From IMG/VR virus record IMGVR_UViG_3300046779_000412, positions 1 to 32,172 of that record: DNA of 32,172 bases; one strand, given 5' to 3'. The stretch is from a virus. Taxonomy: Duplodnaviria > Caudoviricetes. The notes under the pieces are model-generated. The model did no database searches. It was not told the origin of the DNA and worked only from the letters and a program-made list of their open reading frames with translations. This document shows, one piece after another, positions 6,462 to 12,628 of this stretch. Within the stretch, counting starts at the first letter, position 1, and each line of letters starts with the position of its first letter. Position numbers and translations under genes: made by a program.

Positions 6462-7160
6462 ATGCAAGCTGCTCTATTCGTAGATCAATTAGAACAAGGT
6501 AATGAAGCAATGTTTCGTGCTTCAGAACTACAAGTTAAAGCATATTTCGATTCAAAACCATCAAAAGATGAGTTAATCGACCATTTTAAAGGTCGTATGG
6601 TTAATGAAAGAATGAACCTAATCGAGATCTCTGCTCAAATCGCTGCAGCACCTGCTGATGCAGATGTACAGTACCTAAATCTTCTTTCCAAACAAGCGCA
6701 AGACGAAGCCAAACATTTCCGCATGGTAAAAAATGTTATTGAGCATATTTCTGGTGAAACACTAGACGTAGCTGCAGCTGTTGAAGAGCATTCTAAGAAA
6801 TTAGATCAAAAGGGTGCTGCTCTTATCAAAAAATATGGCGCAGACAAAGACCCATTAATGTTAGCTGTTTATCAGTTAATCGCTGAAGGTCGTGCTGCTC
6901 GTAACTGGAAAATGATGTCTGAGTGCATCGAAGACCAGTTTATTGCTAAAACATACGCAAAGATTGCACGTGACGAAAAGTTCCACTCAAGTATTGGTCG
7001 TGCTGAACTTCTAAAACTATGTGACGATCCAGTTAATCAACAGAAGGTTATGGCTGTTGTTGACCAAATGCGTAAAGATCTATTCCTAATCACTTGTGCT
7101 AAATCTGGTATGAATGTAGAGAGCAAGAAGATTATGGAAGACGCTTATGGTCCACTATAA
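6462..7160 (+). CDS. Ferritin-like di-iron carboxylate protein, paralog 1
   Basis: E(RMN)...DEAKH...AEGRA...DEKFH: two DExxH motifs, each preceded by a helix Glu. Confidence 0.85.
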   Translation: MQAALFVDQLEQGNEAMFRASELQVKAYFDSKPSKDELIDHFKGRMVNERMNLIEISAQIAAAPADADVQYLNLLSKQAQDEAKHFRMVKNVIEHISGETLDVAAAVEEHSKKLDQKGAALIKKYGADKDPLMLAVYQLIAEGRAARNWKMMSECIEDQFIAKTYAKIARDEKFHSSIGRAELLKLCDDPVNQQKVMAVVDQMRKDLFLITCAKSGMNVESKKIMEDAYGPL

Positions 7161-7173
7161 TAAGGAATCAAAA

Positions 7174-7902
7174 ATGACTACAGGTAAACAGTTTGTAAAA
7201 GAGTTGCAAGAAAGTTTTGATACTCTATACGGTGTAGCAGACAAGACTACACGTGAGTATTTTGCTACTAATCCAAGCAAAGAGCAAATGCTCGCTTACT
7301 TTAAGATTCGCCTATTCAATGAGCGTTGGAACATGGTCGAATTGAGCCAAGCAGTTGCTAATCTTCCAGTTGACACTCCAATGGAAGAAGCACAAATGAT
7401 GGCAAAACAAGCATACGATGAAGCAAATCACTTCCGTATGGTTAAAGAAGTTCTTGATCACATCGCTGGTGAAGAAGTTTCTGTTGCTGAAATTAGCAAA
7501 ACTCATGGTAAGAAAATGCCATCTCAGGGTGCTTACATCCTAGACAAATACAATGCACAAGGTGACGAACTAGCATTATCTCTATATCAGTTCTTAGCTG
7601 AAGGTCGTGCTGCAGTTGTTTGGCAAGCAATGGCTGAGTCAATTCAGGATCCATATGTTGCTTCTCGTTATGCAAAGATTGCACGTGACGAAAAATTCCA
7701 TAGCAATATTGGTCGCCTAAAACTAGAAAAACTATGCGAATCTGTTGACAACCAAGAACGTGCTAAGAAATTAGTTCAGAACTTTATTTGGGATCTTTAT
7801 GAGAACACTTGCTTGTCTATTGCTCAAGTTTCTGAAGAAGGACGTGTTGCAATGAAGCATGCATATGGTCAACCAACTCGTGAGTTGTCAGTGGCTCTTT
7901 AA
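7174..7902 (+). CDS. Ferritin-like di-iron carboxylate protein, paralog 2
   Basis: E(RWN)...DEANH...AEGRA...DEKFH. Start moved to 7174 because SD TAAGGA precedes it. Confidence 0.85.
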   Translation: MTTGKQFVKELQESFDTLYGVADKTTREYFATNPSKEQMLAYFKIRLFNERWNMVELSQAVANLPVDTPMEEAQMMAKQAYDEANHFRMVKEVLDHIAGEEVSVAEISKTHGKKMPSQGAYILDKYNAQGDELALSLYQFLAEGRAAVVWQAMAESIQDPYVASRYAKIARDEKFHSNIGRLKLEKLCESVDNQERAKKLVQNFIWDLYENTCLSIAQVSEEGRVAMKHAYGQPTRELSVAL

Positions 7903-7917
7903 TATCATCATGTAGTT

Positions 7918-8469
7918 ATGAGAATTTTGATATCACAGAGGGAGGTCATTGTGCCTCCCTCATTTTTTACCTTTGATGCTTTGGAGCGTAGTTGGTATAC
8001 TTTGTTTAGTAAACACCAACTAATTCCTATTCCAAATATCTGCAAGATAGATGAATCTATCCAATATGATTGTTTAGTGCTAACTGGTGGTCCAGATAGT
8101 ATTGAACGACACATAACTGAAGATTTACATTTCAAACACGCACTCAATCAAAATAAGCCAATTGTTGGTATATGTCATGGTGCGTTTGCAGTTAATGATC
8201 TAACAGGTGGAAAGAATGGAAAAGTTGCAGGACATTGGCAAACTGACCATGCAATCTATATGGAAGATAAAGAATTTCTTGTGAATAGTTATCATGAACA
8301 GTCTATTGCAAATATTGGTCCAGAAATGGTTGTCGTTGCAACTGATGAAGAGTATAATATAGAAGCATTTAAACATAAGTCTAAACCAATTTTTGGAATT
8401 GTGTGGCATCCAGAAAGAATGAATGAACCAGTTTTACCATTGGAGGTTAGACAAATACTGGAGATTTGA
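7918..8469 (+). CDS. Class I glutamine amidotransferase / peptidase C26 (PuuD-like)
   Basis: LVLTGGPD, PIVGICHG (nucleophile Cys), VNSYHEQ, GIVWHPE (His-Glu). Confidence 0.9.
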   Translation: MRILISQREVIVPPSFFTFDALERSWYTLFSKHQLIPIPNICKIDESIQYDCLVLTGGPDSIERHITEDLHFKHALNQNKPIVGICHGAFAVNDLTGGKNGKVAGHWQTDHAIYMEDKEFLVNSYHEQSIANIGPEMVVVATDEEYNIEAFKHKSKPIFGIVWHPERMNEPVLPLEVRQILEI

Positions 8470-9899
8470 TGGAATATATTATTTGGTGTTTGATTGGTAC
8501 ATTATATGGAACATTAATCGGTGTTCTTCCAATGGCAGGTGCAACAACAGGACTGTTGACAGTCTTTGCCCTCGCCCCATATTTTTTAGCAGATCCATAT
8601 CTTGGTATTGTCTTTATGACAAGTGTTATTGCTTCATCAAGTACAGGTGATAGTTACACAAGTATTCTCACAGGTATTCCAGGTGGTGGTCAGACAGCTG
8701 CATCTATTATTGATGGTCACCCAATGGCTTTACGTGGAGAAGCAGGTAGAGCAATCGGTATTTCTCTGCTTGATAGTACAATTAATGGTGTTGTTTGGGG
8801 TTTGATTGCATTTGCTTTTTTACCATTTTATAGTAAGATAATTCTTTACTTTGGTGTTCCAGAATTTGCTGCATTATTCTTGTTGAGTTTTTGCTGCGTT
8901 GGTATGTTGACAAGTAAAAATTTCTTTTATGGATTCTTAAGTGTTATCGTTGGATTATACCTCGGACTAATTGGATTAGATCCAGGAACATCTTCTCCTA
9001 GATTTACATTTGGTTGGGATTATCTTGATTCGGGTATTCAGATCCTTCCAATGATTGCTGGATTATTTGCTATACCAGAATTGATCGAAGGGTGGAATCG
9101 TAGACATTATGCTGTAGTAAAAATTGAGAATTATTACCAGCAGGTGTTTCAAGGTTTTAGAGATTGCTTAGTATACTGGCGTGATGTTGTTCGTGGTGGA
9201 TTCATAGGATTCTTCACTGGCATTCTTCCAGGTGCTGGTGGAACTATCGGTGATATGATGTCATATTCTGTCACTGTTGCTAAAAACCCTAAAGAACAAT
9301 TTGGAAATGGTAACCCAAGAGGTCTAGCAGGATGTGAAGGTGCAAATAATGCACAGAAAGCATCTTCGCTTTTGCCAACAATATTGTTCGGTGTTCCAGC
9401 TGCACCTTTTGCTGCTGTGATGATGGCGATATGTGTTTATTTCGGTATGTATATGGGTAGTCCAGAATTAGCAACTGACACAAAGTTTATTTGGTCTATT
9501 GGTGCTAGTTTTATTGCTGCGACTATCATTACATTTATTCTGGGAATTTTTATCACTAAATATGTAGTGAAGATACTTGAGATTCCATATTGGATCTATG
9601 CAATAGGTATCCTCTGTATAGTTGTTTGGAGTTGCTTTCAATATACTGGAACTCTTAACGATTTATACATTTTAATTATGTGTAGTGTTGTCGGACTAGG
9701 TGCCAAATACTTACACTTAAGTAGACCTGCGATTTTGTTATCTTTCATTGTCGCAGAGAAATTTGAGAATTATGCCCAACAAGCATATACGTTGTATAGT
9801 ATTGGTGATCTAATCCAACGACCACTAACAGTTGGGCTATTCTCATTGTGTTTGTTTATACTTTATTGGACAATACTAAGGAGAAAGCCAAATGTATAA
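8469..9899 (+). CDS. tctA: Tripartite tricarboxylate transporter large permease, TctA family
   Basis: G.LIGVLP, SILTGIPG, DGHPMALRGEAGRA, PRFTFG, GLFAIPE, GILPGAGG, EGANNA; many TM helices. Confidence 0.9.
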   Translation: MEYIIWCLIGTLYGTLIGVLPMAGATTGLLTVFALAPYFLADPYLGIVFMTSVIASSSTGDSYTSILTGIPGGGQTAASIIDGHPMALRGEAGRAIGISLLDSTINGVVWGLIAFAFLPFYSKIILYFGVPEFAALFLLSFCCVGMLTSKNFFYGFLSVIVGLYLGLIGLDPGTSSPRFTFGWDYLDSGIQILPMIAGLFAIPELIEGWNRRHYAVVKIENYYQQVFQGFRDCLVYWRDVVRGGFIGFFTGILPGAGGTIGDMMSYSVTVAKNPKEQFGNGNPRGLAGCEGANNAQKASSLLPTILFGVPAAPFAAVMMAICVYFGMYMGSPELATDTKFIWSIGASFIAATIITFILGIFITKYVVKILEIPYWIYAIGILCIVVWSCFQYTGTLNDLYILIMCSVVGLGAKYLHLSRPAILLSFIVAEKFENYAQQAYTLYSIGDLIQRPLTVGLFSLCLFILYWTILRRKPNV

Positions 9900-10941
9900 G
9901 TACTTAATTGCAGCAGCAATCGCTGTTGTATCACTCACTGCTCGTGCAGAATATACTATGATTGTTCCAGATTCTCCTGGATCTGGTGGTGCAGTATGGG
10001 CATCAGTCATCGCTAAACATCTTAGCAAATACACAGACGAACCAATCGTGTTACAACACGTTCCAGGTGCACGCAATATTCCTGGAATGAACGAGTGGCA
10101 TAAAAAGTTTCGTCATGATGATAAAACTATGGTAGTAAGTCTTGGCTCGCACGCAGTAAATTTCTTGCTAGAACCAGTTGATTATAATTTTAGTGACTAC
10201 TCTGTTATTGGTATGATGAATCTTGATTTGGTTGTTGGTCATAATAAGAATCATGATCCAAAGTCTCAGAAGTCTAAGATGGCAGGTGGTAATGCTCTAA
10301 ACGATGCGCTTGCTGTTGGTATTATGATTTGTGGTCCACAACCAAACACTGATGCTTATCTTGCTTGTTGGAAAGAGCGTATGACATGGGTTAATGGTGT
10401 TGCTGGAAATCAGATTCGACCAATGTATATGCGTGGCGAAATTAATATCACACGTGACCCACCAACTTCTTGGATTCGTTTCTATGAGAAAGATCCAAAC
10501 ACAGTTGTCTGGTTTACTCATGGTCTTAAAGATCTAAAAACTGGTAAACAGATAGAAAACCCAAATTATAAAGGTAAACTGTTTGAGGATGTTTATAAAA
10601 AGACTTGGGGTGTAGCACCATCTGGTGATTTGTTTGAATCATATCATATGGCACGAACATTTAATAATGTTCTTCAAAAAGTTATTTGGGTTAACAAAGG
10701 TAATCCAAACGCAGAGAAACTTCGTGTTGCCATGAGAAAGATGTTGGCAGATCCAGAGGCAGTAAAAGCCATTGAAGAGGATTCTGGAAAATATGAATGG
10801 ATTGTTGGTGAACAAGCTGATAAGATTCGCCAAGATCTATTTAAAATGATCACAGAGAAGAGATTACAAACTCTTGTTCAGTGGTATCAGGGTGCTTATG
10901 GCACAAAAAGTGTATACAAGCCAGAACTTGTATCTAAATGA
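9892..10941 (+). CDS. tctC: Periplasmic substrate-binding protein, TctC/Bug-like (divergent)
   Basis: Signal peptide, IVPDSPGSGG, L.KY...PIVLQHVPGA, RGEIN; adjacent to tctA. Confidence 0.75.
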   Translation: MYKYLIAAAIAVVSLTARAEYTMIVPDSPGSGGAVWASVIAKHLSKYTDEPIVLQHVPGARNIPGMNEWHKKFRHDDKTMVVSLGSHAVNFLLEPVDYNFSDYSVIGMMNLDLVVGHNKNHDPKSQKSKMAGGNALNDALAVGIMICGPQPNTDAYLACWKERMTWVNGVAGNQIRPMYMRGEINITRDPPTSWIRFYEKDPNTVVWFTHGLKDLKTGKQIENPNYKGKLFEDVYKKTWGVAPSGDLFESYHMARTFNNVLQKVIWVNKGNPNAEKLRVAMRKMLADPEAVKAIEEDSGKYEWIVGEQADKIRQDLFKMITEKRLQTLVQWYQGAYGTKSVYKPELVSK

Positions 10942-10961
10942 TATTTTATAAAGGAACAATA

Positions 10962-11519
10962 ATGTTTAAGAAAATTTTAATCGCAACAACTTTAGTTGCA
11001 TCAACAAGTGTTTTTGCACAATCTTCTGTTACCATCACTAGTGGTAATCAGGCAGCAACCACTGGAGTAGATTCATCAATTATCAATGTCTCAGCTAAAA
11101 CACGTTTGTTTGGACAGACTGATGCAGATGTTGGTATTTTGACAACACGTGCTGAAACTACAGATAAATTAACTAATCGTTATGAGTTAGGTTTAACCCA
11201 AAATATGCCAATTGATGGTACTGTTTTATCATTTAGTTTACGTGGTGCATTTGGGCAGAAAGCAGTTTCTACTAGCCAACCATTTAACTATCATTCAGTT
11301 GAGCCAGCAGTCACAGCAAAAGTTGGTGCTGTTACAGCAAAGTTAGGGTATCGTTGGAGAGATGCATTTAATAATGTTAATGCAGATAAGAGTGAAACAA
11401 CTCGATTTGCTATCACATATGATCTAACAAAGAAAGACAAGATCGGTATGGGGTATGATATCCTGCGTGGTGATGGTGCTAACAAATCTACAACAGTAGC
11501 ATATACAAGAAATTTTTAA
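10962..11519 (+). CDS. Outer-membrane beta-barrel protein (small porin-like)
   Basis: Sec signal MFKKILIATTLVASTSVFA, amphipathic beta-strands, C-terminal beta-signal YTRNF; SD AAGGAA supports start 10962. Confidence 0.75.
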   Translation: MFKKILIATTLVASTSVFAQSSVTITSGNQAATTGVDSSIINVSAKTRLFGQTDADVGILTTRAETTDKLTNRYELGLTQNMPIDGTVLSFSLRGAFGQKAVSTSQPFNYHSVEPAVTAKVGAVTAKLGYRWRDAFNNVNADKSETTRFAITYDLTKKDKIGMGYDILRGDGANKSTTVAYTRNF

Positions 11520-11530
11520 TAAATAGATTT

Positions 11531-11897
11531 ATTGCTGTATGAAGCAATGAGAAAGGTGTTCTGGACGAGGGTTCGATTCCCTCCACCTCCACCAAAAGGA
11601 ATTTTATGAGTAATTTATTGCTTGGATTATTAATTATAGGTTTACATGGTTATTGGGTTTACAAACTTGTAACATATGATTGGAGTCAGTATGATGAAGA
11701 TCAAAAGCAATTAGATGAAGATTTCTTTTGATGGGGGTGACTAGGTTTCGACAGGGCAATTAGTAACAGAGTGGACAGCACGACACAGAGAGTCGTAAAA
11801 AGTAAACAACGTAAACGCAAACGACGCACAGTTCGCATTAGCAGCCTAAACGCTGCTTAGGGTTTCGGTAGGTTTCCTCGTAACAGAATAACCTACC
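11531..11897 (+). ncRNA. ssrA: Circularly permuted (two-piece) tmRNA gene
   Basis: T-arm GAGGG-TTCGATT-CCCTC (11567-11583) and CACCTCC-A-CCA (11584-11594) lie upstream of the 5' acceptor strand GGGGGTG (11733-11739, G3:U70 pair) and TTCGAC D-like loop. Tag frame ANDAQFALAA* at 11817-11849; late promoter TAAATA 11520-11525. Outer ends are approximate. Confidence 0.93.
11606..11731 (+). CDS. 41-aa single-TM peptide encoded within the tmRNA intervening segment
   Basis: SD AAGGA right after CCA; MSNLLLGLLIIGLHGYWVYKLVTYDWSQYDEDQKQLDEDFF*; one base separates the stop from tmRNA G1. Confidence 0.7.
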   Translation: MSNLLLGLLIIGLHGYWVYKLVTYDWSQYDEDQKQLDEDFF

Positions 11898-11915
11898 ACT
11901 AATTCGGAGATAAAA

Positions 11916-12428
11916 ATGAAAGTTGCAGTGCTTTGCAATGGTCCAAGTAGATTTGCCTATACTGGTAGATTAGGGTATGATTATGTTATTGGTTGTAATA
12001 TTCCTTGGACTGAAGTAGATGCAACTGTTGTTTTAGATGAAAATGTTATACATCGCTGGGCAAAAGAACCAGATCTAATTAGATGTAAAACATATTTCAG
12101 TAGAAAAGCATGGATGGAAACAGACGCTATTAAGAAACGTGATTTCTTCCATCCATATCTTATTGAAGTCATAGATATAATGCCTGAGTATGATTCGAGT
12201 GGACATAATGCAGCAAGATGTGCAATAAAACTTGGTGCTAAACAACTAGACATATATGGTTGCGATTCATGGTTTGAACAAACTCTTGTTAGTTATACTC
12301 ATAAGTATTTTAACGATCTCAATCCAGACAACACTAAGAAACATGTTATGGGTTGGCGTAAAAGGTGGGAAGAGATAATAAAATCGAATCCTGATGTAAT
12401 GTTTAATTTTATAAGGAATGTGTCATGA
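11916..12428 (+). CDS. DUF115/MAF-flag10/GT29-like Rossmann-fold protein
   Basis: VAVLCNGPSR, IGCN, SSGH.A...A.KLGAKQLDIYGCD motifs; SD GGAG. Confidence 0.6.
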   Translation: MKVAVLCNGPSRFAYTGRLGYDYVIGCNIPWTEVDATVVLDENVIHRWAKEPDLIRCKTYFSRKAWMETDAIKKRDFFHPYLIEVIDIMPEYDSSGHNAARCAIKLGAKQLDIYGCDSWFEQTLVSYTHKYFNDLNPDNTKKHVMGWRKRWEEIIKSNPDVMFNFIRNVS

Positions 12429-12628
12429 AAACTTTAATCGCAGCAACTATGTTAGTATTTGCATCAGCTTCATTTGCAGCTGAACCAGCAAAGAAAGATG
12501 CAAAAGCAGCTCCAGCAGCAGAACAGAATTGTGTTAAGAAAGACAAGAATGGTAAGTGCCCACCTGCACCAAAGAGTGAAAAGCCAACACCTAAAAAGAA
12601 AGCTGAAAAACCAGCTGAGAAAAAGTAA
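12425..12628 (+). CDS. Small exported Lys/Ala/Pro-rich protein with one Cys pair
   Basis: Signal peptide MKTLIAATMLVFASASFA; CVKKDKNGKC; SD AAGGA. Confidence 0.7.
   Translation: MKTLIAATMLVFASASFAAEPAKKDAKAAPAAEQNCVKKDKNGKCPPAPKSEKPTPKKKAEKPAEKK

Follow-up and report, generated by a model that had tools for sequence, protein, structure and literature searches.

A Putative Small-Protein Gene in the Exchangeable Intervening Segment of a Permuted Phage tmRNA Gene

Structure of the Locus

The sequence analyzed here, called the window, is the whole stretch of 32,172 bases of a viral record (IMG/VR IMGVR_UViG_3300046779_000412) with an estimated completeness of 14%. It is a fragment of a T4-like myophage, with genes for baseplate, tail tube, single-strand binding protein, helicase loader and late transcription regulator. 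On its plus strand, ARAGORN detects a permuted tmRNA gene with the tag ANDAQFALAA. The Rfam model RF04321 matches positions 11533–11849 with 127.5 bits (gathering threshold 47), and RF01850 (beta_tmRNA) scores 119.4 bits (gathering threshold 84).

The acceptor piece (11533–11594, 5′ end approximate) is delimited by ARAGORN, Rfam and folding, as is its T arm (11567–11583). The 3′ strand of the acceptor stem (11584–11590), the discriminator A11591 and the CCA (11592–11594) are read from the sequence and folding. The intervening segment (IVS; 11595–11732) is 138 nt long with 27% GC. The coding piece (11733–11897, 3′ end approximate) begins with G1 at 11733, and contains the tag frame (11817–11849, from ARAGORN) and a terminal hairpin seen in the sequence at about 11867–11897. 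The CCA-bearing piece lies 5′ of the G1 piece, the acceptor stem has 7 bp with G3-U70, and the tag has the hydrophobic end ALAA. The gene is a predicted permuted two-piece tmRNA of the betaproteobacterial type.

Just 5′ of the acceptor piece is ATAAATA (11519–11525, plus strand), which we take to be a late-promoter-type motif of T4-like phages with a putative function here. The motif occurs 9 times in the window against 16 expected and is not enriched in count; all nine copies are on the plus strand. No excess of promoters or terminators was found within 10900–12500. The stop codon of a gene for a 185-aa protein (10962–11519) overlaps the motif. This protein begins with a signal-like segment and ends in Phe, looks like an outer-membrane barrel by eye, and has no Pfam or PHROG match. 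Further upstream, 8466–10941 contains a phage-borne gene for the TctA component of a tripartite tricarboxylate transporter (Pfam E-value 8e-101), followed by a gene for a secreted-looking 349-aa protein without Pfam match, possibly the binding protein of TctA. Two neighboring ORFs at 6462–7902 show weak matches to DUF455 or ferritin-like families under the curated cut-off.

The 41-Residue Protein

The IVS contains an ORF of 41 codons (11606–11731, plus strand). The Shine-Dalgarno (SD)-like sequence AAGGA (11596–11600) is 5 nt before the ATG and forms a predicted anti-SD duplex of −5.6 kcal/mol. The TGA stop (11729–11731) is one base before G1. All coordinates of the initial annotation, for the CCA, AAGGA, the ORF and G1, hold. 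Its description of the spacer as almost entirely one ORF is also correct, with 41 aa in the 138-nt IVS. Dinucleotide shuffling of the homologous L007 spacer yields a spacer-filling ORF in 0.7% of cases, and the ORF is therefore more than a chance product; the window spacer is not listed separately in this test and was presumably merged into the L007 cluster.

AlphaFold2, run with 17 sequences, predicts a hydrophobic helix at residues 2–23 and a polar, acidic helix at residues 26–40 (mean pLDDT 93, pTM 0.52). The two helices are connected by a conserved W-x5-TYDW hinge, and W17, TYDW and D32 are invariant across the 17 aligned copies. The best 17-residue hydropathy is 1.48 in the window protein and 2.42 in the L007 protein, and based on these values the protein is predicted to carry a membrane anchor.

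The protein appears to fit no known family. No PHROG was found for the window protein, and a Pfam search with 17 family members gave weak matches only. One candidate was DUF6341 (PF19868), which matches five of the 17 members (best E-value 0.00069); the window protein has no match to it, and the assignment was rejected. In the ESM Atlas, the best value was 0.83, to clusters without names and with a low recognition score. Among annotated phages there was no convincing match (two records at E-value 0.7). A deep profile search recovered 23 proteins, all short and of this kind, and nothing longer.

Homologues Inside and Outside the Intervening Segment

Homologue searches with alignments gave 22 viral loci, and then 77 metagenome and 65 viral loci. 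The latter two sets and the window make 143 loci, 94 of them distinct. The ORF is inside the IVS at 22 of these (20 found by the parser, plus L247 and L254 by eye), directly upstream of the tmRNA gene at 44, and elsewhere or truncated at 28. The 44 upstream copies, 38 full and 6 partial, end directly 5′ of the acceptor piece. The IVS is 137–139 nt long in the 20 parsed copies, and in 21 of the 22 the ORF terminates at the TGA beside G1.

A "DQ" type tail, the codons of which make up the 3′ arm of the helix described below, is common to all 22 IVS copies. Most copies outside the IVS end in an unrelated tail; seven retain the DQ tail, and in one of them (L376) the leader-tail pairing persists at −10.1 kcal/mol. 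These facts suggest that the copies with DQ tails outside the IVS are escapes from it. The ORF tree, based on 84 columns, is poorly resolved. IVS copies are scattered on it, requiring eight changes of location, at least two of which are forced; such a tree cannot fix the direction or number of moves. By eye, three other small ORF families occur in an IVS and, in different phages, in the upstream slot (L066/L017, L017/L140, and L150/L026).

Small ORFs of the upstream slot (L017, L026, L140, L178, and L174) show little SD; their ATG follows within a few bases on boxes resembling TATAAT or TAAATA, which suggests that the tmRNA promoter itself drives them and that translation may be leaderless. 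Some members of the 41-aa family lie apart from any tmRNA (L177/L362 and L366) and abut a gene that, from its start, we take to be IscU-like. Three phage tmRNAs (L165, L167, and L169) with non-canonical T loops, partly missed by ARAGORN, carry the same cargo gene in the IVS.

Selection on the ORF

Nine disjoint pairs of IVS copies showed 55.0 synonymous differences over 176.8 sites and 51.0 non-synonymous differences over 768.2 sites, or pN/pS of 0.21 with the helix codons left out. Three divergent pairs (window/L264, L249/L311, and L247/L326) supply most of these counts. The six close pairs have 14.5 synonymous and 16.5 non-synonymous differences, at a site ratio near 1 to 4.3. One close pair, L179/L184, differs at 4 of 20.8 synonymous and 3 of 99.2 non-synonymous sites. 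Among seven IVS copies, dN/dS between the window and the others is 0.09–0.26, with 10 of the 21 pairs saturated and the highest value being 0.50. The annotated frame gives pN/pS of 0.28, vs. 0.52–2.09 for the other frames. Variable columns number 22, 14 and 35 of 40 at the three codon positions. Frame +1 is stop-free in 17 of 17 copies.

The initial annotation had proposed dN/dS as a check of coding and had considered frameshifts or stops in homologous spacers fatal to its claim. The pN/pS value bears out the former, and the frame is open in all 22 IVS copies. With the frame kept and purifying selection among homologues, the IVS ORF behaves as a protein-coding gene; that it evolves as a real gene is well supported by the sequence comparisons. 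Since most of the signal comes from the three divergent pairs and IVS copies are scattered on the tree, part of the measured selection may have acted outside the IVS. In L254, an insertion of 7 nt close to the 3′ end brings the stop forward and shortens the ORF by two residues, with the full closing helix kept.

An Exchangeable Slot in the tmRNA Gene

The spacers of permuted tmRNA genes were sampled by two motif scans, covering 43 viral loci and 120 of about 530 stretches, which is a partial, motif-selected sample. With the window, 148 of 164 loci were parsed as permuted, yielding 114 distinct spacers in 84 clusters. A filling ORF was defined as one that starts with an ATG at +8 to +22 and stays open until 20 nt or less from G1; it was counted in the clusters of at least 75 nt (n = 45). 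AT-rich clusters contain it in 15 of 17 cases vs. 0.79 expected from shuffles, the cut at GC 0.35 being picked post hoc with the data already seen. The other 28 clusters contain two, with 2.6 expected. About 15 of the 84 sampled clusters carry a filling ORF.

More than 10 unrelated ORF families occupy the slot, and their products are both hydrophobic and soluble peptides. tmRNAs 97–99% identical to that of the window contain either another ORF (L017, L028, and L033, where the tmRNA is 99% identical and the ORF is an unrelated one of 26 aa) or a non-coding spacer (L005, L006, and L025, at 98%, and L029). The closest relatives of the window ORF (79–83% at the nucleotide level) are in tmRNAs whose pieces are 55–75% identical. 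The simplest reading of these comparisons is that the spacer has been swapped between conserved tmRNA halves, and the IVS as a swappable cassette is well supported. The variable cargo slot supposed in the initial annotation is strongly supported by the near-identical tmRNAs with different cargo and by the filled AT-rich clusters.

In six of the 15 other cargo ORFs, the stop lies beyond G1 and not in the IVS. Such cargos could be completed only on uncut RNA. Cargo ORFs running through G1 are seen in L002, L117, L024/L032, L101, L110, L135 and L148, and would become non-stop mRNAs if cleaved.

Non-coding IVS families also recur (L052/L058, L059/L072/L136, L083/L106/L140, and L019/L045/L113). They are 50–240 nt long and GC-richer, and possibly represent small RNA cargo. 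Rfam searches of 20 loci with longer non-coding spacers gave only tmRNA models and one tRNA. The four cultured phages with permuted tmRNA that were inspected (Mosig, DLP6, Marzo, and Rb1) lack a CDS annotation in the IVS, and their spacers look non-coding by eye.

L015 and L043 have near-identical tmRNAs with an IVS of 237 nt and 134 nt, respectively. L015 contains an additional helix-closed cassette before the L043-type spacer, and the joint consists of a short G1-like stretch and a repeated CTCCACCA. Recombination of a circle at the acceptor end would produce such a tandem, although it is seen in one contig and could be an assembly chimera.

The Closing Helix and the SD Site

The IVS is closed by a predicted helix of 13 bp including two G-U pairs. 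Its 5′ arm (11593–11605) takes in the last two bases of CCA and the entire 11-nt leader with the SD, and its 3′ arm (11718–11730) consists of the final codons together with part of the TGA. Pairing probabilities are 0.83–1.0. In addition, A11591 is paired with U11732, and the helix is predicted to stack on the acceptor stem across a one-by-one mismatch. The initially described helix of the SD region, extending the acceptor stem, is therefore present but longer than claimed. In 15 IVS copies, 98.7% of the cells pair, compared with 46–63% in slid controls. The helix covaries, with changes on both sides at 7 of 21 pairs (four belong to the IVS helix, three to the acceptor stem); the structure is derived from the window and kinship among the sequences inflates these counts.

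The helix is equally long in coding and non-coding spacers. Cellular Gallionellaceae spacers of 30–36 nt are closed by the same type of helix, and TGAT ends 27 of 28 distinct spacers in a set not chosen on the 3′ end. Based on these three observations, the closing helix is an inherited generic feature of the IVS, presumably for processing, and the TGA stop is borrowed from it. The stop near G1 and the helix are therefore not independent signs of design. Two ideas are ruled out here: that the stop next to G1 shows design, by the generic TGAT, and that the helix evolved to hide the SD, by its occurrence in non-coding and cellular spacers.

The SD itself is different in this respect. AGG is found within the first 8 nt of the spacer in 9 of 15 coding clusters and in 0 of 69 others. 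For the 41-aa gene, an SD of −4.5 kcal/mol or stronger is present in 14 of 22 IVS copies, 4 of 43 upstream copies and 1 of 28 copies elsewhere (5 of 71 outside the IVS); it is weak or absent in 8 of the 22 IVS copies. This tracking of coding spacers by the SD is the best sequence evidence that ribosomes may initiate inside the IVS. One or two base changes in the AAAG arm of the helix would create such an SD.

Possible Translation of the Cassette

Folding of RNA prefixes, at equilibrium and not as kinetics, predicts that the SD is paired at 0.12–0.36 until 11722 is made and at 1.0 from 11732. The modelled cost of opening the start region is 5.2–8.5 kcal/mol in nascent RNA, 12.9 in the full precursor and 5.0 in the excised piece, and the median of 17 window genes is 6.4 kcal/mol. 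In the model, 12.9 kcal/mol is reached once G1-G7 close the acceptor stem. In the excised IVS, the SD is predicted to be still paired at 0.95.

We regard it as moderately probable that the stretch between CCA and G1 is a swappable cassette with a selected gene for a 41-residue predicted membrane protein, which is translated on the nascent precursor before the 13-bp helix buries the SD. A single transcript would then likely serve as tmRNA precursor and messenger. Synthesis of roughly 120 nt precedes that of the 3′ arm and would give ribosomes time to load. On reaching the stop codon, a ribosome would open the helix and sit on G1, so that translation and maturation may be mutually exclusive on one molecule, while ribosome-free molecules would fold and mature. 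The 41-aa gene would ride on a strongly expressed transcript, and the conserved tmRNA pieces would act as recombination anchors by which the flanking and internal slots are exchanged. In phage MS2, the maturation gene is translated on nascent RNA, and a long-range helix buries its SD only once the distal arm is made. Different from MS2, the helix here lies next to a tRNA-like substrate of processing, and its kinetic window comes from modelling.

Alternatively, the intact precursor might be silent and the excised IVS the messenger, with protein output reporting tmRNA maturation. The lower opening cost of the excised piece (5.0 vs. 12.9 kcal/mol) fits this possibility and does not discriminate the timing, because it is as low as that of nascent RNA. 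The self-contained cassette (TGA by G1 in 21 of 22 copies; 137–139 nt in 20) and the SD enrichment specific to IVS copies are also as expected. It is nevertheless rather unlikely in our opinion, since the helix is predicted to survive excision (leader pairing 0.56–0.99 in 20 IVS copies, besides the 0.95 of the window SD), the leader is merely 11 nt, the TGA belongs to the generic TGAT (27 of 28), and six of 15 other cargos would lose their stop. The 41-aa gene persists outside the IVS at 72 of 94 loci, the helix is equally long in non-coding spacers and present in cellular spacers of 30–32 nt, and 8 of 22 IVS copies have a weak or absent SD. Trimming back to the CCA, as in tRNA-type 3′ maturation, could destroy the leader. 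By analogy, the excised 23S rRNA IVS of Coxiella is rapidly degraded, according to the available part of PMC4990558.

The protein could also be a partner of trans-translation, for instance as a modulator of a membrane protease for tagged proteins, and be kept beside the tmRNA for this reason. The location in or directly upstream of the tmRNA gene at 66 of 94 distinct loci and the invariant W17, TYDW and D32, which suggest a binding surface, would agree with such a partnership, but 28 copies are elsewhere, more than 10 unrelated families share the slot, most phage tmRNAs lack the 41-aa gene, and the searches gave no family, structure or partner evidence; we consider it quite improbable. Least probable is an ORF shaped by selection elsewhere and untranslated from the IVS, as is reported of the ORF in the Coxiella 23S rRNA IVS (precedent by analogy from the same part of PMC4990558). 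The fully paired SD in the predicted precursor, the weak SD in 8 of 22 copies and the insertion in L254, which shortens the ORF by two residues yet keeps the helix, are compatible with a passenger of this kind; the open frame in 22 of 22 copies, the L179/L184 pair (4/20.8 synonymous vs. 3/99.2 non-synonymous) and the confinement of AGG to coding spacers argue against it.

Extending the preferred reading of nascent translation, it can be speculated that tmRNA genes are platforms for expression and exchange. The helix-closed IVS cassette would be mobile, perhaps as a circle recombining at CTCCACCA (compare the tandem in L015), and protein output would depend on a race between ribosome loading and maturation, so that host RNase P or ribosome-rescue status tunes the phage membrane protein. 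Stop-less cargos would be silenced by tmRNA itself. Taken as a whole, this picture is unlikely.

Relation to Known Systems

Permuted tmRNA in phages is already in print for Melnitz and related aquatic myophages (PMC9004378, the available text of which never uses "intervening"). A 2025 database paper (PMC11915505, as far as available) mentions that IVSs can contain a tRNA-Ala gene or a repetitive element; "ORF" is absent from its main text, and one supplementary file has no "intervening", "IVS" or "phage". The available parts of PMC4131195, PMC10117765, PMC3978253, PMC7335160 and bioRxiv 10.1101/2024.12.16.628780 mention no ORF in the IVS. Titles and abstract starts in the literature searched, which covers few subscription journals and does not reach the first reports of two-piece tmRNA, describe no ORF in a tmRNA IVS.

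ORFs in 23S rRNA IVSs (S23p; Leptospira and Coxiella) are the precedent for an ORF in an excised segment, and that of Coxiella is apparently untranslated and decaying (PMC4990558, part available). Both systems have a sense-strand ORF in a stem-closed segment that is excised from the precursor of an abundant stable RNA, leaving a two-piece RNA. The 23S rRNA IVS, as described there, holds one protein family and is excised by RNase III. The tmRNA IVS differs in its many unrelated cargos, purifying selection, SD gain and swaps with the upstream slot. The window ORF is not an S23p element: it is in tmRNA and not 23S rRNA, has 41 aa in two predicted helices vs. the four-helix S23p, and Pfam gave no S23p match among the 17 members.

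In T4-type phages, PeSL-mediated modular shuffling exchanges cassettes between conserved anchors (PMC2839356, part available). In both cases, exchangeable small genes of unknown function lie between small non-coding anchors that are conserved. Here the anchors would be the two halves of a functional RNA and not repeated promoter-terminator cassettes. PeSL cassettes have a repeated sigma70 promoter and terminator stem-loop at the flanks of the gene; as 10900–12500 shows no excess of promoters or terminators and the flanks are tmRNA halves, the locus was rejected as a PeSL cassette. The locus suggests that T4-like phages may use tmRNA halves as anchors of recombination when small genes are shuffled.

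The tmRNA spacer is usually treated as discarded and is hidden beneath the RNA-gene annotation, but in these phages it appears to be a gene slot. As about 15 of 84 spacer clusters carry a filling ORF, gene calling may miss a set of small phage proteins. The locus is a compact, testable case of one RNA that may be both a tRNA-like processing substrate and an mRNA.

With the permuted betaproteobacterial tmRNAs (RF01850, RF04321), the phage gene shares the order of acceptor piece, IVS and coding piece, G3-U70, the encoded CCA, the tag end ALAA and the TGAT at the end of the IVS helix. The cellular betaproteobacterial spacers are mostly hairpins of 30–43 nt, with one of 131 nt, whereas the phage IVS has 138 nt and a putative protein gene. 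The 131-nt IVS, on an Achromobacter contig (L206), is GC-rich. A contig in a bacterial MAG (L222), possibly a binned phage, has a 147-nt IVS with an SD-led ORF of 37 aa.
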